The position numbers were made by a program, and so were the translations under genes. Positions 12,085 to 54,455 of a stretch of 64,000 nucleotides of DNA are shown one piece after another. This DNA comes from Candidatus Multivoradales bacterium. GTDB taxonomy: Bacteria; Acidobacteriota; Thermoanaerobaculia; Multivoradales; J023. The stretch lies in the NCBI GenBank assembly GCA_965248925.1, contig CBDFLE010000006.1, positions 2,368,001 to 2,432,000 on the forward strand, in the 5' to 3' direction. Positions within the stretch are counted from its first letter, which is position 1, and each line of letters begins with the position of its first letter. The notes beneath the pieces are model-generated. The model made no database searches, had not been told where the DNA came from, and worked only from the letters and a program-made list of their open reading frames with translations.

Positions 12085-12302
12085 ACAGCGTGGCCCGCAA
12101 CGACCGAACCCTGGGGCCCCTCGATCCACACCGCCGACTTGCTCTCTTACCAATCTTTCGGTCGACGTCAAACCGGGCGCTGATCTGTGCTCGACCGGCC
12201 GCTCACAGTAACAGCTTTACGGGCGCCGCGCGGCCCTGGCCGTGCTCTGAGTTGTGGTACAAGAAGCAAGCCACTCCATCTGACGCCCGACGAGGAGAGC
12301 CG

Positions 12303-12962
12303 ATGCCCAGAACCCGACTGCTCGACCGCCTGGAGATTCGCATCCTGGGGGCGCTGCTCGAGAAAGAGCAAACCACTCCGGACTACTACCCGCTGACCCT
12401 GAAAGCGCTGCGGGCGGCCTGCAACCAGAAGAGCAACCGCGAGCCGGTGATGGAGCTTAGCGAAAACGAGCTTCGCGACAGCGTCGAAGGTCTACAGCAG
12501 GACGTGCTGGTGTGGCGTAGTGCCGGCGCCCGCTCGGCCCGTTTCCAACATTCCCTCGATCGGCGCTGGGACTTGCAGCCGGCCTCCAAAGCGGTGATCA
12601 CCCTACTTCTGTTGCGCGGCCCGCAAACCGCTGGCGAGCTGCGCGCCCGCAGTGAGCGTCTGCACCCATTCGCCAATGTCGACGAAGTAGAACAAACCCT
12701 GGCGGTAATGGCCGGCGGCTTCGATGCTCTGGTGCGCGAGTTGCCCCGCCAAGCCGGCAAACGCGAGATCCGCTGGATCCACTTGCTAGCCGACGACGAA
12801 GCAGCCGCCGAAATCGCGGCCGCCACACCCGCGGCGTCGACCTCCCCCGGCCCGAGCCGCGGCGCCAGCAGCTCGCGCCTCGACCTCTTGGAAACCACCG
12901 TCGAGGAACTGCGCGCCGAAGTCGCCGAATTGCGCGGCCGCTTGGACGAACTCGGCGGCTAG
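12303..12962 (+). CDS. yceH: YceH / DUF480 family protein
   Basis: ILGALLEKEQTTPDYYPLTL..ACNQKSNREPVM and LLLRGPQTAGELRARSERL motifs; GAGGAG RBS. Confidence 0.9.
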   Translation: MPRTRLLDRLEIRILGALLEKEQTTPDYYPLTLKALRAACNQKSNREPVMELSENELRDSVEGLQQDVLVWRSAGARSARFQHSLDRRWDLQPASKAVITLLLLRGPQTAGELRARSERLHPFANVDEVEQTLAVMAGGFDALVRELPRQAGKREIRWIHLLADDEAAAEIAAATPAASTSPGPSRGASSSRLDLLETTVEELRAEVAELRGRLDELGG

Positions 12963-13357
12963 CCGCCTTCTCTCGCCAAGTTTCGACCGGACCGTCAAGC
13001 CTCCCGGCTCCTTCGCTAGTCGGGCCGGACTTGGGCCATCTATGCGGTTCGCCAAGGCTCGGCGCCCGTGTCCACCGCCGGCGCCGGCCAGGGCCAAACA
13101 AGGTTGGTGTACACGCATGGAGTCAACTGCTCCAGAGCCGCCACACCGCACAGACAGACTGACAATCTGCTGAGCGAAATGCACATGCAAGCTGCACATC
13201 CAAGCGTAGCGAAAGGACCGCGGGCCAGAGCAGCCAAAGAGAAGCCACACACCTAGGCGAAAAGGCTAATTGTTCTGCTAAAGTTGGCCGCGAAGTCGGC
13301 AAGCCATTGCAATTCAGGGGAGGGTCACCTTAAAGCTCGACCAGCACCATTCCATGC

Positions 13358-14425
13358 TTGAGAAAGCCGCGCAGGGGAGCCGGAAGCCGGCAGAAGATCC
13401 GGCGCGACAAGAAGAAGCTCAACAGCAAGCTCAAGCCGCTGCTAGAGCGTCTAGAGAAAGAGCTTTTTGTGCCCGGCCTGGACGCCGCTCAGCTGCGGCT
13501 GGCCTGCGGTATCAAGGATCGCACGGTAGGCAGCGAGTTTGGCCGCGCGGTGGGGGTGCCGCTGAGGGCCTATATGGAAGACTGCCGGTTGGAGACTGCT
13601 GTTCAGCTACTGCGTCACCAAGATCTTCAGATCTGTGAGATCAGCGAGCTGCTGGGCTACGCCAGAGTGTCGTCCTTTAGCCGCGCCTTCAAGCGTTGGA
13701 GCAGTTTGCAGCCAGGCGACTTCCGGCGTCTGCTGCAAGCCGACTCACCACTGGCGAGCGTGCCTGGCGACGAGCTGCTGACCAGCCCGTTCTGGTACGC
13801 AGCGATGCTCGGCGAACTCGATACGGAGCAAAGGTATCATTTCTGCCGCCATGTGCAGGCGCTCTACCCGCAGTTCCTGCAGCTAGCCACCAGGGTGCCG
13901 GAAAACGACTCTGAGCCACCACCAGAGCGCATTGACGGGCGCCAGTACGAGCGCTTCAAGGCCGCGGAGAAGTGGCAAGAGATCGCCGATCTACCCCAGA
14001 AAGAGCAGCGCCTGCGCGTGCTGGGGGTGCAATTTCGCACGCCGGAGTTCTTCGACCTTCTGCTGCGCAAGAGCCGTGAGGAAGGGCGGAAAGACCGACA
14101 GCGAGGGGTCGAGATCGCCCTCCTGGCCCTCGACACCGTCGACGCCAGCACCGGTCTGCTAGAAGGCGACACGGCGGAGTTGCACGCCAGGGCCTGGGCC
14201 TGGGTAGGCAACGCCCACCGCCTGGCGCTCAATTTTTCCGGCGCCGAACAAGCCTTCGACCGCGCGGAACTCGACTTGGCGGCGCGATTCGCCGGCCAAT
14301 CGCTCTTCGCCAAGGCCGAGATCTCCCTCTGCCGCGCCGGCCTCCGCCTCGATCAGCGACGGTTCGAGGAGGCCGGTCATAAGGTGCCTGGTACTTCTTC
14401 TCGGCACTTCTTCTCGGGTGCATGA
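13358..14425 (+). pseudogene. AraC-type HTH + TPR regulator, truncated at a repeat insertion
   Basis: AraC C-terminal HTH (RLETAVQLL..ISELLGY..SFSRAFKRW), then a TPR-like helical region that breaks off into repeat-derived GHKVPGTSSRHFF at 14372. Confidence 0.75.
14372..14417 (+). repeat. short palindromic (REP-like) repeat, copy 1
   Basis: GCCGGTCATAAGGTGCCTGGTACTTCTTCTCGGCACTTCTTCTCGG. Confidence 0.9.
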
Positions 14426-14490
14426 CCCGGCTGCCCTCTTGGATTTTGGGGAACCTTAGCGAGAATCCGGCCTTTTGCACATGCGAAATG

Positions 14491-14520
14491 GCCGGTCATA
14501 AGGTGCCTGGCACTTCTTCT
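14491..14520 (+). repeat. short palindromic (REP-like) repeat, copy 2
   Basis: GCCGGTCATAAGGTGCCTGGCACTTCTTCT. Confidence 0.9.
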
Positions 14521-14649
14521 TGGGGCGGATTGAGCAGAAGACCAATTTGACAATTCTTCTGCTAGAATCGCCCTCAGAAAGGCGAGTAGGCTCGCCCAAT
14601 CGCCGACTGGGAATCGACGAATGAAGGTAACCAGGGAGGAATCAAGAAA

Positions 14650-15843
14650 ATGAAGTACAAGACCCTCACTCTGCCAGCGCTGGTCTGGGCACTGACCCTG
14701 CCGGCGAGCTGGGCACAGACGGACGTATCCGAATCGCCAGGCGTGGTGGTTCACAAAGACGACAAACGCCAGATTACACGGATCGAGAAAGCCAACGATA
14801 TTACTGATTTCACTTACGACATCGCTGGAACTCTGCTCCAGAAAAACAGCACAAGATTTGGCATTACAGACTTCACCTACGTTCCAAGTAAGTCGACCGG
14901 CCCTTTTGCCCGCCGCCGAACTTCGAAGCAGACCAGTGAGCTTGGAACCTGGGAACGAACTTCAGTCTATGACCAAGAGGGCCAAAAGGCTCTCAACCTC
15001 GAAGGCTTCGACAGCACTACGTTGTCCCTTGTCGCAGATCGCCTACAGCCATACTGGTGGCCGGCCGGGCTTCGAGCAACAGACATCGAGAGTATGGACC
15101 CGATTCAAGGGGAGGATTTTGCGTCTATCTCTTTCTCCGAGGACGAAGATGGCACTGAGGTTCAGCGCATCAGGGTTTTCGATCAACAAATGGAGATCAG
15201 AGCGCGCTGGCTCGACAAAGATCGCCAGCGCCGGGAAGTCCGTGACGATGCTGGCGGCAAGCGAGTTGAGATCTGGTCTAACAACCGCACTTTGTTGAAA
15301 GCATACGACGATTTCGGCCCCCTCATCGAGGCCGAACTAGATGGCCACGGACGGCCTTATCGGGTGATCATTGGGGGCAACACAGTCCTGCGGTTTGAGT
15401 TTGAGAAAGGCAGCAGAGAATGGAAGGTAAGGCATGTCACCGACTTGATCGATGGTGAACTTGTAGGTACGTGGCGAAGACCGGACGATTTCGACAGTCT
15501 TGGCGATGCCCAGCTACCTGGAAGAAGAGCCCTGGCCTTTCTTCCAGGGTCGATACCCATCGCTGAATGGGACAGTGACCTGTGGGCTGAAGGCGCCATC
15601 CAGATCCGCCGCGACGGCGCGCCGTATGCGCTGATCCCCTTTGATGGACACGGAGAACTCTGGAGATCGATCTCAACAATGTTCAAAGGAGTTATCGATC
15701 GAGATCGCATCGACTACACAGATTCGCAAATCCGCATCCTGCTCTCACTGGGCACGTCATCCATCGCTGCCGGGAGCGAAGTGGTCATCCTGCTTGAGCG
15801 GGAGCGCCAACTCTCCCCACCGACCGAAGCAGCAGGCCAGTGA
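14650..15843 (+). CDS. secreted YD-repeat-like protein
   Basis: GGGAGG RBS, Sec signal ending ASWA, YD-like units TDFTYDIAG, TDFTYVP, SVYDQEG, ELDGHGRP. Confidence 0.7.
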   Translation: MKYKTLTLPALVWALTLPASWAQTDVSESPGVVVHKDDKRQITRIEKANDITDFTYDIAGTLLQKNSTRFGITDFTYVPSKSTGPFARRRTSKQTSELGTWERTSVYDQEGQKALNLEGFDSTTLSLVADRLQPYWWPAGLRATDIESMDPIQGEDFASISFSEDEDGTEVQRIRVFDQQMEIRARWLDKDRQRREVRDDAGGKRVEIWSNNRTLLKAYDDFGPLIEAELDGHGRPYRVIIGGNTVLRFEFEKGSREWKVRHVTDLIDGELVGTWRRPDDFDSLGDAQLPGRRALAFLPGSIPIAEWDSDLWAEGAIQIRRDGAPYALIPFDGHGELWRSISTMFKGVIDRDRIDYTDSQIRILLSLGTSSIAAGSEVVILLERERQLSPPTEAAGQ

Positions 15844-16502
15844 GTAGCAAGCGGCGCACCCGCCTGCTACGCATCTGTTTCATTGTCCTTCCAGCCCTTG
15901 CCGCATCGCTAGCGGAGGCTGGCTGCTACTTCGTGCAGAATCAGACTACAGTCTGTTCTACCGATTTCTCCGGGACCACTTGCGAGACCAACACTTACCA
16001 CGACCTCATCTGCTCTGGCGGCGGTGGCGGTGGTGGTGGCGGCAGTGGCAGTGGCAGTGGCAGTGGCAGTGGCAGTGGCGGTGGCAGTAGTTTGACTTCA
16101 GCTCAGCAAGTTGCGATCGGGAATGCGATGGAAGTCGCAATGGGTCGTCTTTCATCCCTGAATTCATGCGCGACCATGTATGACTATCAAACTCTGAGTC
16201 CCACGAATGGCAATTCAATTCTGATGAACACGACCTACGTGAACGACTCGTTCTCCCCCACATGCAATCTCTACCCGAAGGCTATGTGGACATACAACGG
16301 CCCTCCATACAACAACGGCCCCCCTTATGTTGTGAGGGTTTGTCAGGGTATCAATAGTGGTTTTCGAACCATCGACATCGCCATGCTCATGCTTCACGAG
16401 TCTCTCCATTCGGCCGGCCAGCTCGAGGCGCCAGGCAATCCCGGGGCGCCAACTTCAGCTGACCTAAGCGGCTTTGTGCGCGACCGCTGCAACCTCGACT
16501 GA
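15840..16502 (+). CDS. secreted protein: Cys-rich N-domain, Gly/Ser linker, zincin-like HExxH domain
   Basis: GTGA overlap with upstream gene, signal peptide ending AEA, 4-Cys segment, poly-G/GS linker, HESLHSAGQLE. Confidence 0.72.
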   Translation: MSSKRRTRLLRICFIVLPALAASLAEAGCYFVQNQTTVCSTDFSGTTCETNTYHDLICSGGGGGGGGGSGSGSGSGSGSGGGSSLTSAQQVAIGNAMEVAMGRLSSLNSCATMYDYQTLSPTNGNSILMNTTYVNDSFSPTCNLYPKAMWTYNGPPYNNGPPYVVRVCQGINSGFRTIDIAMLMLHESLHSAGQLEAPGNPGAPTSADLSGFVRDRCNLD

Positions 16503-16529
16503 GGCGACGCCTTGGAGTTTCGCGCTTCT

Positions 16530-16575
16530 GCCGGTCATAAGGTGCCTGGCACTTCTTCTCGGCACTTCTTCTCGG
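16530..16575 (+). repeat. short palindromic (REP-like) repeat, copy 3
   Basis: GCCGGTCATAAGGTGCCTGGCACTTCTTCTCGGCACTTCTTCTCGG, abutting the yceH remnant. Confidence 0.9.
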
Positions 16576-16926
16576 TTGCGTGGCCCACAAACCGCTGGCG
16601 AGCTGCGCGCCCGCAGTGAGCGTCTGCACCCATTCGCCAATGTCGACGAAGTCGAACAAATCCTGGGGGAGATGGCCGGCGGCTTCGATGCTCTGGTGCG
16701 CGAGCTGCCCCGCCAAGCCGGCAAACGTGAGATCCGCTGGATCCACCTGCTAGCCGACGAAGAAGCCGCTGCCGAACTCGCGGCCGCCACACCCGCGGCG
16801 TCGACCTCCCTCGGCCCGAGCCGCATCGCCAACAGCTCGCGCCTCGACCTCTTGGAAACCACCGTCGAGGAACTACGCGCCGAAATCGCCGAATTGCGCG
16901 GCCGCTTGGACGAACTCGGCGTCTAA
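16575..16926 (+). pseudogene. yceH: duplicated 3' half of yceH (direct repeat of ~12611-12962)
   Basis: LRGPQTAGELRARSERL..RGRLDELG nearly identical to the upstream gene at DNA level, with scattered substitutions; no 5' half. Confidence 0.92.
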
Positions 16927-16944
16927 CCGCCCAGCCAGTGACCT

Positions 16945-17667
16945 TCAGAGAGCTGGTTTCAACCCAGCCGACGCTCCAGCAGCGGCTGCCAAGCGGAAGC
17001 CATAGTCGCGGTAGCGCAGCCGCGGCGGGATCGAGCTGCGGGCGGCGCAGCGGCTGGCCTTGATGGCGTGGCGCCAAGAGCCACCGCGCGAAGCTCGCCG
17101 ATGGCCGCTGGCGGGTCCCCGCGGGTCGTGCTGCGGCGAACTGGCGTAGTAATCGGCTGCATACCAATCAGCACACCATTCATGGACGTTCTCGCCCAGG
17201 CCGAGAAAGCCCCACGGATGCAGCGAAGGGTAGGCATCTACCGCCTCCGGACCCTCCGACCAGCGTGACGCGTAGTCCGGCAACTGCTCGGGCGGCTCGT
17301 CGCCCCACGGATAGAGCACCTCGCGCCCAGCTTTGGCGGCGTACTCCCACTCTGATTCGGTGGGCAGTCGCAGAGGGTCCTGCAACTGCTCGCCGCGCCA
17401 CCGACAGTAGGCCACGGCATCTTCCCAAGACGGCCCGACGGCCGGCAGACGCGGGCCGACAAAGGCGGGCTCATCCCAGAACGGTGGTGGAGGATGACCG
17501 CTGGCATCGAGAAAGTGCTGGTATTCAGACCTGGTGAGGGACGCCCGCGCCAAGCGAAACGGTCCTAGCCGCACCCGATGCCGAGGGTTCTCGTTGTCCC
17601 GCAGGCCGCCGCCCATCCAAAACTCGCCAGCGGATACTTCGATCCAGTAGTTCTTTTCGTTCTGCAA
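16945..17667 (-). CDS. formylglycine-generating enzyme family (SUMF1/EgtB-type) protein
   Basis: GEFWMG, RLPTESEWEYAA, NVHEWCADWY, RGGSW, GFR motifs; TTG start inferred behind GGGAG. Confidence 0.85.
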   Translation of the reverse strand: MQNEKNYWIEVSAGEFWMGGGLRDNENPRHRVRLGPFRLARASLTRSEYQHFLDASGHPPPPFWDEPAFVGPRLPAVGPSWEDAVAYCRWRGEQLQDPLRLPTESEWEYAAKAGREVLYPWGDEPPEQLPDYASRWSEGPEAVDAYPSLHPWGFLGLGENVHEWCADWYAADYYASSPQHDPRGPASGHRRASRGGSWRHAIKASRCAARSSIPPRLRYRDYGFRLAAAAGASAGLKPAL

Positions 17668-17684
17668 CTTGGCTCCCGGCCTGC

Positions 17685-20600
17685 TCAGGCGAGCTCTTCG
17701 ACCGTCTCCGCCGACGTGGCTGGCGGACTCGAGGGATTCGAGTGCCGCCACAGCCCACTCATCCAACCCCCCACGACTTCGAAACGGACGCTGATCCAAG
17801 GCAGCACCAAGAGGGTCAGCAAAGCCGAGCTGATCAACCCGCCCATCACCGTCAGGGCCAGTGGGTAGTAGAGCAGGTCAGCAACACTGGAGCCACCGAG
17901 GGCCAGCGGCAGCAGACCGATGATGGTGGTCGAAGCGGTCATCAAGATCGGCCGCAAGCGATCGCGCCCTGCCTCCAAGATAGCCTCTTCCCGCCCCATT
18001 CCAGCTTGCCGCAAGCGGTTGACGTGGTCGAGCAGGACAATACCGTTGTTGACCACGATTCCCATCAGGATCAGCAAGCCGATCTGTGCCATCAGGTTGA
18101 ACGGCGAGTCGGTGAGCGCCAGCAGCCAGAGCGCCCCGGGCAGCGCGAAGGGGATCGACCAGAGAATGGCCAGCGGCTGTGACAGCGATTCGAAGAGCGA
18201 CGCCATCACCAGATAGACCAGGGCTAGAGCGAGCAGGAAGTTGATCCCCATCTGGGCGTTCTGGGTGTCCTGTTCGAGCATCCGCGCGCCCCACGACCAG
18301 GAGTAGCCACTCGGCAGATCGAAGGCGTCCATCAGCGCGGCGATCTGCTGGCGGGTGTCTTGCCAATCCTCACCTTCATAGGTGGCAGCCAAACGCAGCC
18401 GCACTTTGCGGTTCTCGCGGCGGATTTGCTGCGGTTTCTCGATCACCTCGAAAGTGGCGATATCCCCCAGGGTGACCGGGCGGCCAGCGACCTCGCGGAA
18501 CTGTAGGGCACTGAGGTCGGCCAAGCTGGCGCGATCTTCGAGGCGCAACGCCAACCATGTCTCGACTTCCCGATCGGCGGCCCTGAAGCGGGGCAAACGT
18601 AGCCCACCAAGGGTAAAGCCGAAGACCTGCGACACTTCCTCGGCGGTCAGTCCCAACCGCGCCGCCTTGTCGCGGTCGATCCGCACCTGGATCTCCTGCT
18701 GGCCACGGCGGTGGCTGCTCGATAGGTCGACCACCCCGGCGACCGTCTCTAGCCGGCGCTCGGCTTCTTCCGCCAGGGTAGTCAGCAGTGCCGAGTCCTG
18801 GCCGTAGAAATTGACCGAGAAGAAGGTGCTGCCGCCGCCAGAGTCCTCGTCCTCGTTGAAACGCAGATCGACGCCGGCGATCTCGGGCAAAAGCTCGCGA
18901 ATGCGACCGCGCAGCCGCTTGAACTGCTTGGCGGAGAGGCTCTGTTGATCGTCCAGGCTGAGGGTGGTCTGCGCCCGGTTGGAGGCGAAGAAGCTGTACA
19001 TCGACGACAGGCCGAGGTCTTCCAGCCGCGGTCCCAGCACCGCCTCGACTTCTTCTACTGCCTGCTTGGCCGCGGACTTGTAGGTAAAGCCGGAGAAATC
19101 GTAGACCAGAAAATAACGATCGTTGACCCTCGCCGAGAACATCCCGGTCTCCACCATGCCGGTAAAGAGGGGCAGCAGGCCCATCGCCAACGCCAGCAGT
19201 AGCAGCAGCGCGGTCCACCCATTTCGCCGCAGGGTCCAGCGCAGGGCCGCGACATAGAGTCGCTCCAGGCGAACCAAGCTCTTCGGCGGCGCGGCTGCCG
19301 GGCCGCGCAAGAACCTGGAACTGACCAAGGGAATCAAGGTAAGCGAGGCGAACAACGAGCAGACCAGAGCCAGCGAGATGGTCAGGCCCACTTCGCCCAA
19401 CCAGGTGGTGAGGTCGCTCTTCGAGCCGATGATCAGCGGCAAGAAAACGATCAGCGAAGTCAGGGTCGAAGCGCTGACCGCCAACCACACCTGGCTGGCG
19501 CCGACCTCGGCAGCACGCTTCGCATCGCCATCTTCACGGCGCCGACGGTCGATCGATTCCAACACCACGATGGCGTTGTCCACCAGCATGCCCACGCCGA
19601 GCATCAAACCCATCATCGACAGCACATTGAGGGTCTTGCCAAGGAAGTACATCACGCCGCCGGCAGCGACAATCGAGAACGGAATCGACAGCGAGACGAT
19701 CAGCGTCGGCCCCAGACGGCGGAAGAAAAGATAGAGCACCACAATGGCCAGCAAGGCACCCAGCAGCCCCGCTCGAGTGAGGCCATTGAGGGCGCTGGTG
19801 ATCTGCTCGGCCTGGTCGTCGAAAACAAATAGGTCGATGCCCTGCAACAACGGATCGGTGTTGATGTCGTTGTGGATCACCGCCATCACCCGGTGGACGA
19901 CCTCGACGGTGTTGGCGGTCGACTCTTTGAACACCGTCACCGCCACCGCGTCCTTGCGATTGAGATGCCGGCTGTAGGCGATCGCCGGTTCCTCGAAACG
20001 CACCCTGGCGACGTCGCGCAGGCGTAGGCCGCGCGGATCGATCACCAGCTCTTCGAGGTCGGCTATGGAGTTGAGTTCGCTGACCGCACGGGCGGTGTAC
20101 CGCATGCCGCCGGCGCTGACCTCGCCCAACACCAGATTGGAAGTGGTGCCAAACATGCGGTCGATCAGGTCGCCGATATCGACCCCGTGGCGTTTGATGT
20201 CGTCGAGCACCAGCTCGATGTAGATCTCCTTTGGCGCCACCCCATCGAGATCGACCCGCGCCACCCCTGGCACCCGCCGCAGACGATTCTGCACCCGCGC
20301 TTCGAGCAGCTCATAGCTCGCCGAGAGGTCCACCCCGTCGGCCGACAGGCGGGCCTCGACCACTGGAATGTCGTTGGTGTTGAACGAGGCAATGAGAATC
20401 TCGCCAATGCCCGTGGGTAGTTCGGAACGCACCTGCTCCATCTTCTCGGAGACCTGCATGCGCACGATATCGATCTCGTGTCCCCAGTCGAACTCGAGCT
20501 GAAATTGGGCCTGGTCGGCGCTGGCGTCCGAGCGCATGCGTTTGACCCCGGAGAGGGTCGCCAACACTTCCTCGACCGGCTTGACGACCTCGCGCTCGAT

Positions 20601-47865: not shown

Positions 47866-48160
47866 ATGACCGACGACCAAATCCAAGCCGCCTTGAGCCC
47901 CCTAAGCGGCTGGCACCGCGCCGAAAACGTCCAAGCGATCGGCAAGCACTACCTGCTCGACACCTGGCGCGATGCCATGATCTTCGTCGACTTCGTGCTC
48001 TTCACCGGCGAGCGGCTGGCCATCACCCCGCGAATCGTCATCGTCGGCCGCCGGCTCAGTGTCCAGATCGGACCCCGACCCCCAGCCAGCCTGAACAGCA
48101 GGCATTTCGAATATGCCCACTCCCTCGACCTCCCATGCGGATCCGGCGAAGAAACCCTGA
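47866..48160 (+). CDS. pterin-4a-carbinolamine dehydratase (PCD)-fold-like small protein
   Basis: GAGGAG RBS; IQAALSPLSGW..IGKHY..WRDAMIFVDFV pattern; end inferred from a +1-frame TGA at 48158 just before a terminator (the ORF track reads through to 48564). Confidence 0.55.
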
Positions 48161-48176
48161 GGTCGCTGGAGCCCTC

Positions 48177-48218
48177 CCTCCGGGCCGGGCCTCTCTCCCG
48201 GCCCGGAGGCTCTTTTTT
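48177..48218 (+). terminator. intrinsic terminator
   Basis: 13-bp perfect stem CCTCCGGGCCGGG/CCCGGCCCGGAGG followed by CTCTTTTTT. Confidence 0.8.
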
Positions 48219-49357: not shown

Positions 49358-52193
49358 ATGAAAACCACCCCCCAGCCCTTCCGTCTGTTCTCCGCCGGCT
49401 GCCTGCCGGCTTTGATTCTGGCCCTGCTGCCAGTGCTCTTCCTCTTGTTCCCCGCGATCTCTCATGGCGCGCAGCAGCACCCCACCAGCGAGCGCGGCTT
49501 CGCCCCCGAGAAAGCCTACGCCTTTGGCGATATCGATCACGTAAGCCTCTACAACGGCGCCCTCACCCTGACCCTCCCCATCGGCCCCACCTACCGGGTG
49601 GGTCGCGGCCTGTCCTACTCGCTGACCTTGGTCTACAACTCCAAATTGTGGGATTGGGAGATCGAGTGCGGCACGGGTAACTGCGAGTCGGTGGCCTGGG
49701 CCAACCGCGATAGCAACGGTGGCTTGGGTTGGCAGCTTTCCCTCGGAAAACTAGTACCGCCGCTGACCCCGCCGCGCAACGACACGCCTCTCTGGCTGTT
49801 CGTCACAAGCGATGGCAGCGAGCACTTTTTTTACGACACGCTGGCCAACGAAGCCCCGGTGGCCAACGTCTACTACAGCCGCGACAGCACCTACTTGCGG
49901 CTGAAGAAGGCGGGTAGCCAGTGGAAGCTGGAGGACGGCGGCGGAGTGACCCACACCTTCAACGCCAACGGCGACCTGCGGCGGCAAGAGGACGCCTTCG
50001 GCAACTACCTGACCATCGGCTATGGCGCCAACACCTGGGATATCGCCGACAGCACCGGCCGCACCCACACCTTGACCTTCGCCAACAAGCTGCTCGACGG
50101 CGCCCAGGTACCGCATCTCATCCGCGCCGACTTGGCGGCCTTCGGCGGTCAGCGGGCGCTGTGGAGTTTCACCTACCAGCAAGCCACCGTCGACCGCCCC
50201 GCCCCATCGCCGAACGTGGGTGTCTACAGTCCGCCTGGGGCGCACTTCCTGACCAAGATTTCGCTGCCGCACGGCCAGAGCTACAACATGGGACCGGTGG
50301 CCCAGCGCTACCACTTGTCGCGGCTTGAGCACACTCGCAATGTCGGTCAGATCAAGGCCGTCGATCTACCCACCGGCGGCCAAGTGGCTTGGGAGTACAA
50401 GAACTACAATTTCTACACGTTGGGCGACCCGCCAATCGGCACTGGGCATCCGCGCCGTGAGTTGCAGCTTTCCTCCGGCGTCAAGTCCCGGCGCCTGATC
50501 GACACCACCGGCGGCGAGCTGGGCAAGTGGACCTACACCCAGGTACTGACCACCGAGGGCTTCGATCCAGCGGTCCAGTCGATCACCACGGTCAAGGCAC
50601 CTTCGGGACAAAGGTCGATCCACTACTTCTCGACCTACCAAGGTGGCCCCACCAGTGTCACCACCGCCAATGAACTCGATCTGGGGCTGCCCTTCACGCC
50701 GAAGAACCCGGTGGGTGAGCGGCGCCTGTCGCAGCGGGTACTCTCGGCCGGTGGCACCGACCTTCGCCGGGTCGAGGTGGGCTATCAACGCGACGCCGCC
50801 GCGCCGCTGGGTGAGGTGCATATCCGTGGTCAGCTCAACCCCGCGGCGCGCGATCGTAATCAACGAATGTTCGTTACCCGTACGATCTACAAGGACGACG
50901 GCAACCGGTACGCCGAGGACCGCATGTCGGGCTATGACGGCGTGGGCCACTATCGGCGCACGGTGCGCAAGGACAACTTCGACGGGGTGAAGACGCGCAA
51001 TCAGTTCACCCGCTACCATCCCGGCGGCATGCCCAACACCGGCCAAGCGTGGATCCTCGGCACCTACACTTACCAGACCACCGTCGACACCGGCGGCGCC
51101 ACCTTGCGCCGTGATACCTGCTTCGATTCCGCGACTGGCTTTTTGAAAGTGGAGCGGCTGCGCCAAGCCAACCCGGCGCCGAGTTCGGACGACGTGGTGC
51201 GCGCGATGAGCTACGTCCGCGATGCCGCGAGCAAGATCGAAACCGTGGTCGAGCGCCATTTCGGCGGAGATACGGGCGCCGTGGCGGCGCCCGGCGACGT
51301 CTGCGCGCTGAATCCGGCGCACAACACCAGCCACGTTGCCCTGGAGCACAAGTGGCAGTACGGCTCTGGCCGCTCAAGCCAATACTTGAAACTCGATGGC
51401 AGCCGCTTCCCCTTCTTCGAAGTGCTCCAGACGGTGGACCGGAAGACCGGCCTGATCAGTGCGAGCACCGACCGCGCGGCCTTAGTCACCGCTCTCAAGT
51501 ACGACTTTCTTGGCCGGCTAACCGAGTCCAAACCCTCCGCCGGCCACGGCGCCTGGACGCTCTACGCCTACACCAACACCTTCAACTCGGCCGGCCCCAA
51601 GGTCGAGATCCGTCAAATCGACCGCGATACCAGCGCCGCGTTGGCCAAGCGCGAGCTACGTTTCGACGGCATCGGCCGGCTGATCTTGGAGCGTCAGCGC
51701 CAGCCTAGCGGGCTGTGGGCCAAACGGGTAACCGCGCCTACAGCGGCGAAGGCTGGACCCAGAGCGAGTCCGAGTGGTACCGCTCCGCGGGCACCGTCCA
51801 CCGCACTTATTTCGACCACGATGCCTTTGGCCGGGTGACCAAGATCGTGCCGCCCGACGGCGCTACCCACGATGTGCGAGTGACCTACCTCGGCGACCGG
51901 CGAGTAGTGCGCCGGGGAAGGGTGGGCACTTCAGTAGCTGGCAACGGCAGCGTCAACCAAAGCCAGTTTGCCACCGAAGAGATCTACGATGCCTACGGCC
52001 GCCTGGTGCGGGTATCCGAGCCCGCGGGCGGCCTGCTGGCGACCTACTTCTACGACTCCGGCGATCGGTTGAAACAGGCTAATCTGAAGGGCGGAAGTAC
52101 CACCCAGATTCGCACCTTCGAGTACGATGGTCGAGGCTTTCTCCTCTCCGAGAATCACCCCGAGGCACAGCAGATCAACTACAGCAACTACGA
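49358..52193 (+). pseudogene. RHS/YD-repeat protein, frameshifted at ~51734 and interrupted by a group II intron
   Basis: Signal peptide, GGLGWQLSLG, YD repeats (YDFLGRL, FDGIGRL, YDAYGRL, YDSGDRL, YDGRGFL); extra GC in ACCGCGCCTAC; no core end or toxin domain in the window. Confidence 0.88.
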
Positions 52194-54455
52194 GTGCGGC
52201 AAGAAGCCGCTTTTCTATATGAAAGGAGTTGTCCTCCGAAATGCAATTATTTGATTTCCCATCCCATGAGCGAGGACCATCTGTACCGCCAGATGAACCT
52301 ACGGCCCTGAATAAAGAGCGGGCCAGACAATGCGCGAAGCACCTCGGTGCGGTCTTGACACCGCGAGGCGTCAAGGCTCCTGGGAGCCCCGATCCGGGAT
52401 AGCGTCTGGTAGTAGCCATGGCAAACACATGTGAATCAGCGCAGGGATCGTTATGATGAAGGGCCAAAGGGGCTGACAGGCCTGGCCAAACGGCAAGGTG
52501 GCAGGGGCCACGTTCTCGTAGTCGTGGCCCGCGGTCGTCGATCACCCGGTCTAAAGCTGATGCCTAAAGCTACGTACTCCGAAAGCGGAACTTGTAAACC
52601 TGGTATGTCCGCCTACGAAGGTGAGAGTCCGATCTTTCCCGCCCCACCGCGTCAGCGAACGGCCCGGGATCGTTCCGACTCCTATCGTCAACCAGGCAGG
52701 CTGACCGCAAGGGAGGCTATTGGATGTGCCGGAGTAGGACGCTGGAAGAAGCGAATGCCGGTCTGTAATGGATCGGATACGGGTTCGGAATTTGCCCGGC
52801 GCGAAAGCGAGCCAACGTCCAGCGGGTGTTTCTTTGTAAGAGCGCTTGGAGAACCGATTCTGCGGAGGAATGGCGATGGATGACCCGAAGAAATTCGCGG
52901 TCGGCGCACCTTCGGGCGGTGTCGAAAACTGGTCGGATATCGACTGGCGGTGGACGTACAAAACCGTTGAGCGGCTACAAGTTCGTATTGCGAAGGCAGC
53001 TCGGAAAGAACGCTGGGGGAAGGTGCGCTCCCTCCAGCGAATTTTGGTTCAGTCGCTGCCTGCGAAGCGGCTGGCGGTTCGTCGGGTGACGACGAACCAG
53101 GGAAAGCGCACGCCGGGAATCGACGGTGTTCTCTGGAACACCTCTCGGCAGAAGATGCAGGCCGTGGACGAGCTGAAGCGGCGAGGCTATCAGCCTCAGC
53201 CACTACGGCGAATCCACATTCCAAAACGCAACGGCGGAAAACGTCCGCTGAGTATCCCGTGTATGCACGATCGAGCGATGCAAGCTCTTCATCTGCTGGC
53301 TCTCGAGCCAGTAGCCGAGCAAAGGGCGGATCCAAATTCCTATGGATTCCGCAAAGCCCGTTCGATCCAAGATGCCCATGTGCGATGCCACATGGTATTG
53401 GCTAAGGGCAACGCAGCTGAATGGGTGCTCGACGCGGACATCGAAGCCTGTTTTGATCAAATCAGCCATCAATGGTTACTAGACCATATCCCGATGGATA
53501 GAAGTCTACTCCGGAAATGGCTGAAGGCCGGATATTTCGAAGGTGAGATGTTCCACCCCACTGAGCAAGGCACTCCCCAAGGAGGAATCCTCTCGCCAAC
53601 CTTGGCGAATATGACCTTGGACGGTTTAGAAGCTCATGTCCTTTCGGCGGTTCCACGCCCAAAAGGGAAGGAGCCCGCGGCCAAGGTCCATGTCATTCGG
53701 TACGCAGACGATCTCGTGGCCACGGCCAGAACCAGGGAACTCCTGGAAGAGAACGTCGTCCCCGCGGTTACCGCCTTTCTCAAAGAACGCGGTCTGAGAC
53801 TGTCCGAAAAGAAGTCCCAGATCGTGCATATCGACGACGGTTTCGATTTCCTTGGAGCCAATGTACGTAAGTACAACGGCAAGCTCCTGATGCGCCCAAT
53901 GCGGGCCAACGTCAAGGATCTCATCCAAAGAACGCGGAGCCTCATTCGTCGGAACTTCGGAACCAAGACGGAAAATCTACTGCACCAGCTCAACCGCGTC
54001 CTCCGCGGCTGGGCTCACCAGTTCCGTCATCTCGTTGCCTCGAAGACCTTCCAGAATATCGACCACTTCATCTTCGGACAGCTCTGGAGATGGGCGCGAA
54101 GGCGCCACAACAACAAAGGGCTACGATGGATCAAGACGCGATACTTTTCTCGCGTGGGAAACGCCAGGTGGCTACTCAATGCCAAGCAAATCCGAGCTGG
54201 AAGACGTCCACAGACGATCGTTCAGTTTCGAACGAGCAGCCTGAGAATCCGTCGGCACATCAAAGTTCGGGCCGAAGCTAGGTATCACGATGCCCGTTAC
54301 GCGGAGTACTTCAAAGAACGCTGGAGGCAGCGTCGCCGCCGCGAGCATTGGGACCGCCAAAGAACGAGGCCTGGGCAACTGGAGCTGTCATTCTGAACCC
54401 ACAAGCCCGACAAGCCGGGTCGGCAAGCAGCCGGCCTTTGGAATGCCTGAGCCGA
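52194..54455 (+). mobile_element. group II intron (3' ribozyme end truncated or degenerate)
   Basis: GTGCG 5' end; EBS1 TCGTAGT (52516-52522) in a hairpin loop complementary to exon ACTACGA (52187-52193); RT ORF; domain V begins GAGCCG at 54449 but does not complete. Confidence 0.9.
52876..54396 (+). CDS. ltrA: group II intron reverse transcriptase/maturase, no endonuclease domain
   Basis: RT_N (WSDIDW..LQVRIAKA..TPGIDG), PQGGILSPTLAN, YADD, GFDFLG, X domain RGWAHQF; no HNH motif. Confidence 0.95.
   Translation: MDDPKKFAVGAPSGGVENWSDIDWRWTYKTVERLQVRIAKAARKERWGKVRSLQRILVQSLPAKRLAVRRVTTNQGKRTPGIDGVLWNTSRQKMQAVDELKRRGYQPQPLRRIHIPKRNGGKRPLSIPCMHDRAMQALHLLALEPVAEQRADPNSYGFRKARSIQDAHVRCHMVLAKGNAAEWVLDADIEACFDQISHQWLLDHIPMDRSLLRKWLKAGYFEGEMFHPTEQGTPQGGILSPTLANMTLDGLEAHVLSAVPRPKGKEPAAKVHVIRYADDLVATARTRELLEENVVPAVTAFLKERGLRLSEKKSQIVHIDDGFDFLGANVRKYNGKLLMRPMRANVKDLIQRTRSLIRRNFGTKTENLLHQLNRVLRGWAHQFRHLVASKTFQNIDHFIFGQLWRWARRRHNNKGLRWIKTRYFSRVGNARWLLNAKQIRAGRRPQTIVQFRTSSLRIRRHIKVRAEARYHDARYAEYFKERWRQRRRREHWDRQRTRPGQLELSF

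Follow-up and report, generated by a model that had tools for sequence, protein, structure and literature searches.

Within a stretch of 64,000 nucleotides (nt) of the genome of Candidatus Multivoradales bacterium (Acidobacteriota; contig CBDFLE010000006.1, positions 2,368,001 to 2,432,000; hereafter the window), three copies of one short palindromic repeat lie exactly where genes have been truncated, duplicated or bracketed, which raises the question of what kind of element this repeat is and how it came to occupy these joints. We are inclined to view the repeats as a repetitive extragenic palindromic (REP)-type element belonging to a Y1/HUH system akin to the REP-associated tyrosine transposases (RAYTs), which probably works through a Y1 nuclease in the manner proposed below and whose copies mark the closing joints of mobilised blocks. 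Plain positions refer to the window, and those prefixed C4, C5 or C6 to this genome, C6 being the contig of the window.

All three copies lie on the forward strand in the same orientation, as GCCGGTCATAAGGTGCCTGG(C/T)ACTTCTTCT at 14372, 14491 and 16530, and follow the layout GCCGGTCATAAG-GTGCCTGG(C/T)AC-TTCTTCT. The palindrome at their centre is an 11-nt dyad of the form 5-1-5; copy 1 is distinguished by a C>T change (GGTAC) inside it, and copies 2 and 3 are identical over 30 of 30 nt. Copies 1 and 3 additionally carry a doubled 13-nt tail, GG[T/C]ACTTCTTCTC GGCACTTCTTCTC, ending at 14417 and 16575 respectively. The 16-nt pattern AAGGTGCCNGGCACTT, with up to two mismatches allowed, gives 3 matches where 0.11 are expected, and none of 100 shuffles yielded three or more. 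As an independent check we used k-mer contigs from four public runs, which derive from one sample of one study and are possibly the source of the assembly. These contigs span 13800-16010 in three runs and 16094-16617 in all four, with 0 differences from the assembly; copies 1 and 2 are reproduced in three of the four runs (run X1 is without a contig over 13800-16079) and copy 3 in every one. Since the contigs agree with the assembly over every copy and each of the two tails, the data themselves contain these, and the assembler did not create them.

Each of these copies sits at a break. The AraC-type open reading frame (ORF; 13358-14425, 355 aa) reads through copy 1 to a stop at 14425, and is 70% identical to residues 32-362 of a 583-aa paralogue (L290:801-2552) that combines HTH_18 with a weak TPR match; there the alignment stops, leaving the window gene without ~221 C-terminal residues. 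At the DNA level, homology to two AraC-type paralogues ends at 14373 and restarts at 14420, with ~800 bp missing between. Since the 68 nt past copy 1 correspond to the DNA downstream of the paralogues, these ~800 bp are gone and copy 1 stands in their place. Copy 3 directly abuts a headless duplicate of the 3' end of yceH, the intact gene being located 4 kb upstream, and the duplicate (16565-16931) derives from, or is partnered by, the 3' part of the latter (12603-12967), with which it shares 93.2% identity over 367 nt by BLASTN. Copies 2 and 3 enclose a two-gene block with a GC content of 0.558, as against 0.64-0.67 in its neighbours and 0.625 in the genome. An earlier, sequence-only reading of this DNA had described most of this arrangement. 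Its three same-orientation copies with tandem tails on copies 1 and 3 are borne out by the sequence and the run contigs, the cutting of an AraC-TPR gene by copy 1 by the paralogue alignment, and the abutment of copy 3 on a headless yceH with an ACTTCT microhomology by BLASTN and the DUF480 profile. Its description of copies 2 and 3 as bracketing a gene pair of YD and HExxH type stood as regards the bracketing and the HExxH motif (HESLH), and found no support as regards the YD label, no Pfam or RHS/YD match being obtained for either bracketed ORF.

The window copies belong to a family dispersed through the genome. Its unit of ~23-30 nt comprises (C)ATAAK, the 11-nt palindrome GTGCCTGGCAC and then C-T-N-T-T, and the full core C-ATAAK-GTGCCTGGCAC-C-T-N-T-T occurs in ~57 copies at ~20 loci. 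The exact 30-mer form is local to the window, and the 27-mer with its local flanks is likewise confined to it apart from one site with three mismatches elsewhere in the genome. The bare palindrome, GTGCCWGGCAC, is found 70 times in 31 clusters; the left flank TAAK precedes 56 of the 70, and columns -6 to +15 are conserved. A 17-mer of the family has 50 occurrences in this genome, whereas a single one of 40 relatives contains it, once; the reversed control gave none.

At most of these loci the repeat is found in arrays with a distinctive stutter, in which flanks peculiar to each locus, left (L) and right (R), recur about the core, as complete units ([L core R]n), as left halves ([L + GTGCC]) or as right halves ([(T)GGCAC + R]). 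One such right-half piece is the 13-nt tail found on copies 1 and 3. Measured as an exact 9-mer of the flank repeated directly within 80 nt, stuttering affects 45 of the 57 family cores here versus 6 of 96 cores at loci of other genomes. The right-hand breaks cluster at +18/+19 (8-9 nt past the core) and also at +21/+22, and the left-hand breaks fall between -5 and -12; as we read them, the two sets mirror each other about the centre of the palindrome, several junctions being ambiguous by 1-2 nt. The same half-core grammar recurs in L068 and L095, which are from metagenome-assembled genomes (MAGs) of Clostridia and Gammaproteobacteria.

The position of the repeat at joints is likewise not peculiar to the window. 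On comparing the 350-nt flanks of every family locus with the genome, we found three further loci where the repeat lies exactly at the cut end of a nearby duplicate of 95-96% identity, 4-12 kb off, with an inserted block between the two (Table 1). At the M16 peptidase locus a second array is present 334 nt past the intact gene. At the M28 peptidase locus the DNA between the duplicates holds a TPR gene, bracketed by a repeat pair at C6:4371956 and C6:4373538, and a lanthipeptide-like cluster with transporters. Elsewhere, a truncated copy of a multi-copy Rhs-region repeat directly adjoins the array at C5:1443400, the copy at C5:1072672 sits in a 110-nt gap between two mobile elements, and other family loci are beside mobile elements or upstream of genes. 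The microhomology at the joints is 0-5 nt long: CTCGG between copy 1 and the remnant, ACTTCT/G between copy 3 and yceH, and CGG and G at two others. The GC content of the inserted DNA is clearly below that of the genome in the window block, the TPR gene (0.575) and the C6:1086518 block (0.581), and not in the two large blocks. No transposase family was detected among the ORFs of the window, M16 and M28 blocks, the block at C6:1086518-1089096 not having been scanned.

A candidate for the enzyme behind these repeats in this genome, judged from its sequence relationships, is the product of a 313-aa gene (P0001; C5:709130-710071), whose stop codon precedes the palindrome by 1 nt (...TCA TAA T and then the core). 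All five copies or remnants of this gene end at a repeat (C5:710073, C5:701464, C5:1440525, C6:3632699 and the remnant at C5:687886); two of them are intact and another two contain insertion sequences that interrupt them, the fifth being a 235-nt remnant. P0001 has a Pfam match to Y1_Tnp (PF01797, E 6e-7); its match to the NCBIfam RAYT model (E 1.3e-11) scores 44.6, below the cut-off of 80. It has 358 database relatives, some of which are named 'REP element-mobilizing transposase RayT' by their source. In an alignment of 24 P0001 homologues H62, H64 and Y123 are invariant, and the tyrosine lies in a motif YLLSQ (Y---Q) rather than Y---NP. The family profile recovers the ISDra2 TnpA structure 2XM3 with E 6e-6, with the HUH motif and catalytic tyrosine aligned, and the set 2XM3/2XMA/2XO6/2FYX with E-values from 6e-6 to 2e-3. 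Although this genome contains 14 matches to PF01797, those adjoining a repeat are the P0001 copies only. A related-locus search from the single P0001 sequence recovered no relative.

Beyond this genome, the 17-mer was searched for in one genome per species; at least 107 stretches were listed, and by our own arithmetic ~140 would be expected by chance over the whole collection, the two figures not being comparable. Counted as AAGGTGCCWGGCACCTT with up to one mismatch, the core has 111 copies in the planctomycetotan MAG G334, 25 in Bacillus caseinilyticus, 18 in the planctomycetotan MAG G333, 17 in a deltaproteobacterial MAG and 14 in another MAG of Acidobacteriota, with 0 in the reversed control in all five genomes. 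In other genomes it forms inverted doublets resembling REPINs (paired REPs) and is the tip of longer perfect hairpins, as in L148 (17 bp, -20.8 kcal/mol, z -7.2). Their outer stems vary and stay complementary, and by sequence comparison the 11-nt tip is shared base for base across at least four phyla. In L145, L148, L150, L153 and L159, which are from planctomycetotan, Bacillota and deltaproteobacterial genomes, the core stands on both sides of Y1/HUH genes, and in L148 the stop codon of the Y1 gene is 2 nt before it. Those from Planctomycetota and Bacillus encode proteins of 193-330 aa with the motifs NH[VFD]H and Y[IV].LNP. Hence the earlier suspicion of a REP-like element near a RAYT gene found its counterpart both in P0001, with the palindrome at its stop, and in these core-flanked genes, and the suspected association with breakpoints extends to the three further loci at cut duplicate ends. 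The literature searched with the core sequence returned unrelated papers only.

Based on these observations we propose that the unit would be a hairpin substrate for a single-strand DNA nuclease-ligase of the Y1/HUH class (RAYT or IS200-type), which would nick the hairpin at its tip and, on either strand, ~8-11 nt away from the core. Rejoining of such ends over short distances would give rise to local stutter arrays, and longer-range events would excise a block and close it into a circle, one end of the block being fixed by the repeat and the other arbitrary. Homologous recombination at a gene fragment present on the circle could then insert it into a chromosome, with the resulting order of intact gene, inserted block, repeat and truncated duplicate of the gene. 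Each of the four layouts has a single novel joint with the repeat on it, and so fits a circle closed at the repeat followed by a single homologous crossover. In the window, a block ending in copy 3 and carrying the yceH 3' fragment may have integrated at one stage, and at a second stage, inside this block, the AraC-type deletion would have been sealed by copy 1 and the low-GC two-gene block would have come to lie between copies 2 and 3. A Y1 enzyme recognising the hairpin on both strands, and nicking at its tip and at a fixed distance from it, would explain the mirror-symmetric stutters, the half-core pieces and the recurrence of the grammar in L068 and L095. Alternatively, incoming linear DNA ending at the repeat might have been inserted by homology-facilitated illegitimate recombination, which would explain the 4-7% divergence of the duplicates. 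A bolder and decidedly tentative extension is gene capture by an HUH enzyme acting in trans, whereby a ~25-nt hairpin provides the fixed end, neighbouring DNA is circularised and integrated by homology, and multi-gene blocks are built and reshuffled, as by ISCR elements, but without an enzyme of their own; the stutters would then be scars of abortive rounds, recording the three places where the enzyme nicks, at the tip and, on each strand, 8-11 nt beyond the core.

Several observations weigh against the proposed Y1/HUH system. Nicking, circles and excision joints were not observed, and the run contigs, which cannot show rare forms, contain no joint skipping 14491-16530 such as excision or a circle would produce; the trans-mobilisation, deletion by the element and cassette swapping of the sequence-only reading are thus still inferred. 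The repeat adjoins P0001 at its 3' end only, with none upstream, and among 21 loci of P0001 homologues (2 paralogues here, the other 19 in five further genomes) none has a palindrome with arms of at least 6 nt within 30 nt past the stop. Hence the P0001 family is not generally REP-associated, and its adjacency to the repeat could itself be a case of repeats lying at duplicated-block edges. The core-flanked Y1 genes of other phyla belong to another class (Y..LNP) and are only 20-30% identical to P0001, and no close homologue of them was found in this genome. Copies show no orientation bias relative to GC skew, unlike elements of the IS608 type. Of the 17 non-master loci, at least three lie in ordinary intergenic DNA where two complete genes converge (DUF2071 and FAD oxidase; an uncharacterised ORF and MeaB; a halogenase-like gene and EF-G), though with three further joint loci the copies outside the window are not randomly intergenic. 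The ancestral empty state was not found either. The best relatives have 54-63% identity in yceH (63% in the best metagenome relative), the neighbours of yceH are not conserved in 22 family relatives (49-57% identity there), and the collections searched contain no close relative.

The main rival to a dedicated nuclease is template switching at the hairpin, in which a passive palindrome stalls or misleads replication or repair, and slippage or microhomology-guided switching (as in fork stalling and template switching or microhomology-mediated break-induced replication, FoSTeS/MMBIR), or end joining with templated fill-in, makes the stutters, the sealed deletion and the partial duplications. Such copying errors also predict joints with 1-5 nt of microhomology, as seen here; the 1-2 nt ambiguity of several stutter junctions, the distance of only 68 nt between copies 1 and 2, which fits templated insertion from nearby, and the absence of such hairpins from P0001 homologues elsewhere point the same way. 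The hairpin itself bears on both accounts: it is weak in this genome (4-bp stem, -2.4 kcal/mol, z -1.85), which sits poorly with a nuclease substrate and makes stalling unexpected. Template switching also leaves it unclear why break positions should be narrow and mirror-symmetric at loci with different flanks, why the half-core grammar recurs in unrelated phyla, and why, from phylum to phylum, every base of the core is kept and the outer stems change, a pattern pointing to sequence-specific recognition. On balance we consider this explanation possible but rather doubtful.

The remaining accounts leave more of the evidence unexplained. A protein-binding or RNA-level signal, i.e. an operator, a terminator or an mRNA-stabilising hairpin as proposed for enterobacterial REPs, to which the joints would be secondary, agrees with the three loci between convergent complete genes, the classical place of REPs and terminators, and a 5-1-5 dyad would fit a dimeric binding protein. 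However, the weak stem has no T-run, Rfam gave no match at its gathering score over 14000-17000 (the two hits listed, E 0.03 and 0.44, being far below it), and stutters, half-core pieces and cut genes would go unaccounted for, making this improbable. That the repeats are att- or attC-like sites of a tyrosine or serine recombinase, with the two-gene block as an integron-like cassette, is suggested by same-orientation copies bracketing a compositionally foreign gene pair and by the second pair around a single TPR gene. Yet the window has no match to PF00589, the nearest of 37 in the genome being ~115 kb off (serine recombinases were not searched for), stutters and half-core pieces are no known product of conservative site-specific recombination, the partners of the core in other phyla are Y1/HUH genes and not integrases, and an 11-nt 5-1-5 dyad lacks the R''-L''/L'-R' structure of attC; we regard such sites as very improbable. 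Least credible of all is a sequencing or assembly artefact. The near confinement of the family to this assembly among 41 related genomes, and the proneness of tandem short repeats to error in some long-read assemblies, would be compatible with one, but the run contigs of this sample reproduce the three copies and both 13-nt tails exactly, and the same core and grammar appear in assemblies from other projects and assemblers. We know of no adapter sequence that matches the repeat.

Certain further candidates were tried and rejected. No full-length transposon bounded by the half-sites ATAAKGTGCC ... GGCACC was found, solo half-sites being stutter pieces or chance occurrences. A MITE cut down from a DDE transposon was also dismissed, as there is no long element bounded by half-sites and the duplicated flanks are of varying length and contain half-cores. 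The TAA of CATAAK does not serve as a stop codon for upstream genes, since long open frames end there only at copies of the Y1 gene, and readings of the core as a sigma-54 promoter or a dif-like site were rejected by eye on spacing against the consensus.

Among known systems, the IS200/IS605 elements are approached by P0001 in its Y1 domain with HUH and Y---Q motifs, in ISDra2 TnpA being its best structural relative by sequence profile, and in the hairpin just past the end of the gene. The right-end cut of IS608 resembles the cut inferred here ~8-11 nt 3' of the hairpin. The differences are that P0001 is twice as long (313 aa), that no left-end hairpin or defined left boundary was found (the P0001 copies lie in larger repeats of 5-7 kb without a common left end), that copies show no strand bias with replication direction, and that the short copies move or duplicate without the gene. 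The block layouts in turn are reminiscent of ISCR1 in complex class 1 integrons, where intact sequence, acquired block, element end and 5'-truncated duplicate follow one another, an order explained by the homologous integration of circles, one end of which is fixed (oriIS) and the other variable. Four loci here share the block, the fixed repeat end and the truncated duplicate of this ISCR1/IS91 pattern. Unlike the ISCR elements, whose transposase is a Y2-type HUH enzyme encoded inside the unit, the blocks here carry the 23-30 nt repeat only, and so an enzyme would have to act in trans; they also lack resistance genes.

The closest likeness is to REPtrons, reportedly composed of REPs or REPINs and their RAYT (TnpA-REP) genes and said to have been described by Nunvar in 2010 and by Bertels and Rainey in 2011. 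Shared features are a short, mostly extragenic palindrome in tens to hundreds of copies and, in the other phyla, Y1/HUH genes with inverted core copies on both sides. On the other hand, the flanks are (C)ATAAK and CTNTT without a GT[AG]G or CGTC foot, the stem is of only 4-5 bp here, the gene in this genome is multi-copy with the repeat at its 3' end only while a RAYT gene is usually single-copy, and P0001 has the IS200-like Y---Q in place of the Y---NP of RAYTs. According to Quentin et al. 2018, each tnpA-REP has its own REP family, subclass 2.1 having none, and classes 2.6 and 3 are also without the tetranucleotide foot (PMC6006769); an identical 11-nt tip in at least four phyla departs from the first of these statements. 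The core-flanked Y1 genes elsewhere have motifs and lengths as in class 2, a likeness read from the motifs. The TnpA-Y1 subclass 2.1, or TIRYT, is described by the same authors as having no REP-like sequences nearby and a terminal inverted repeat consensus, GGGG[AT][CG]A[CG] (PMC6006769), that is unrelated to the core, and two of the supplements of that paper, as examined, do not contain the core. Tandem reiteration of REPs together with flanking DNA is already described by Di Nocera 2013 (PMC3733652). Thus, REP/RAYT systems being known, the repeat family is not an undescribed kind of system, contrary to the strong candidacy for one advanced from the sequence of the window.

REPs are abundant, and both their spread and their effects on genomes are still open questions, for which the ~20 stutter loci and four block layouts make this genome a readable record. 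If the joints are the work of a Y1 nuclease, genomes outside Proteobacteria would gain and truncate genes by way of REP-type repeats, and the retention of one 11-nt tip beside Y1 genes of different classes conflicts with the rule of one REP per RAYT. Should copying errors be responsible instead, the locus would represent a clear natural case of palindrome-driven rearrangement.

Table 1. Repeat copies and the genes and duplicates at their joints (window positions unless prefixed)
Feature	Position	Strand	Evidence or remark
Intact DUF480/yceH gene	12090..12962	+	Pfam DUF480 profile 1-149/149, E 6e-55
AraC-type HTH regulator gene, 5' part only	13358..14371	+	HTH_18 E 2.8e-15
Repeat copy 1	14372..14417	+	Left flank GCCGGTCATAAG, core GTGCCTGGTAC (C>T), right flank TTCTTCTC, half-core stutter GGCACTTCTTCTC; at ~800-bp deletion joint in AraC-type gene
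68-nt remnant of paralogue downstream region	14420..14487	+	BLASTN 87% (C6:2764684-2764750), 84% (C6:4872158-4872219); alignment by eye
Repeat copy 2	14491..14523	+	Single unit, no stutter; border of AraC remnant and low-GC block
ORF, 397 aa (first bracketed gene)	14650..15843	+	N-terminal signal-like segment; GC 0.557; no Pfam/NCBIfam family
ORF, 220 aa (second bracketed gene)	15840..16502	+	Gly/Ser linker, HESLH motif; GC 0.566; no Pfam family
Repeat copy 3	16530..16575	+	Unit and half-core stutter GGCACTTCTTCTC; joint with headless yceH duplicate; in contigs of 4 runs
Headless duplicate of yceH 3' end	16565..16931	+	DUF480 profile 100-149 only; ends 5 nt past yceH stop position
FGE-sulfatase family gene, convergent	16945..17799	-	Pfam E 4.4e-44; right-hand context of the composite locus
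M16 peptidase duplicate			Second copy, 10.7 kb downstream and next to an array, of the last 695 nt of a complete 958-aa gene; 95.5%; other genes occupy 9.3 kb between
Duplicated segment	C6:1083527-1084002		Recurs at C6:1090115-1090590, abutting array; 96%
LOG-family gene and first 145 codons of M28 peptidase gene	C6:4370737-4371946		1210 nt, ends at repeat; 95.5%; full copy 11 kb downstream

The surroundings of these features afford some further observations. In the 220-aa ORF of the window the Gly/Ser linker (16006-16075) is encoded by a GGC/GGT run followed by (GGCAGT)n, and it is in this linker region, at 16011-16093, that the contigs of all four runs break ('skipped repeats'). The repeat-bounded block at the M28 locus includes L289 (C6:4373549-4382691), with RamC_N, a kinase-like gene, LanC-like pieces, and ABC and MacB/FtsX transporters; the LanC-like and kinase ORFs overlap as if frameshifted.

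L001/L002 (C5:685000-718000) and C6:3616000-3640000 hold several 5-7 kb repeats with 96-99% identity that contain Rhs-repeat genes of ~1700 aa, and the Y1 gene with its repeat is convergent to the Rhs 3' ends. The TGA of the ORF just upstream overlaps the ATG of the Y1 gene, and by eye this ORF resembles the C-terminal part of a ComM/YifB-type protein. A ~1.5-kb insertion sequence is present in ~25 copies at 99% identity (e.g. C6:3614645-3616147), one of which, together with a Mu-type/rve transposase pair, interrupts a Y1 gene at C5:696178-700723. A further copy cuts the block upstream of this gene, and at C6:3616145 a block without the Y1 gene, considered as an empty site, is simply cut by this same insertion sequence. 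A tyrosine-recombinase gene of ~372 aa is likewise found in at least 14 near-identical copies (C5:923200-976003, C6:3501654-3517752, C4:72331 and others), seven of which are spaced 7.5-12 kb apart on C5.

Three segments towards the far end of the window, at ~47896-48189, 52051-52400 and 53733-54121 (C6:2415896-2416189, 2420051-2420400 and 2421733-2422121), are multi-copy elements that also flank repeat loci elsewhere; one such element is a group II intron, with a reverse transcriptase and maturase ORF (C5:1072578-1073975) and 100%-identical copies. Two diverged forms of the repeat were also encountered. At C5:2057213-2059074 a 1032-bp tandem duplication of 99-100% identity has in each unit the palindrome with a diverged left flank (GCACAA) and the right-half stutter GCACCGCAGATCGCG, and C6:2609085 is a degenerate family copy, CTCTTCATAATGTGCCGGATACCTATTTCTGG, in which the right half of the palindrome is mutated. 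Finally, GC skew changes sign at ~2.6-2.95 Mb on C6, the likely origin of replication, and at ~0.75 Mb on C5, the likely terminus, placing the window ~0.25 Mb from the likely origin.

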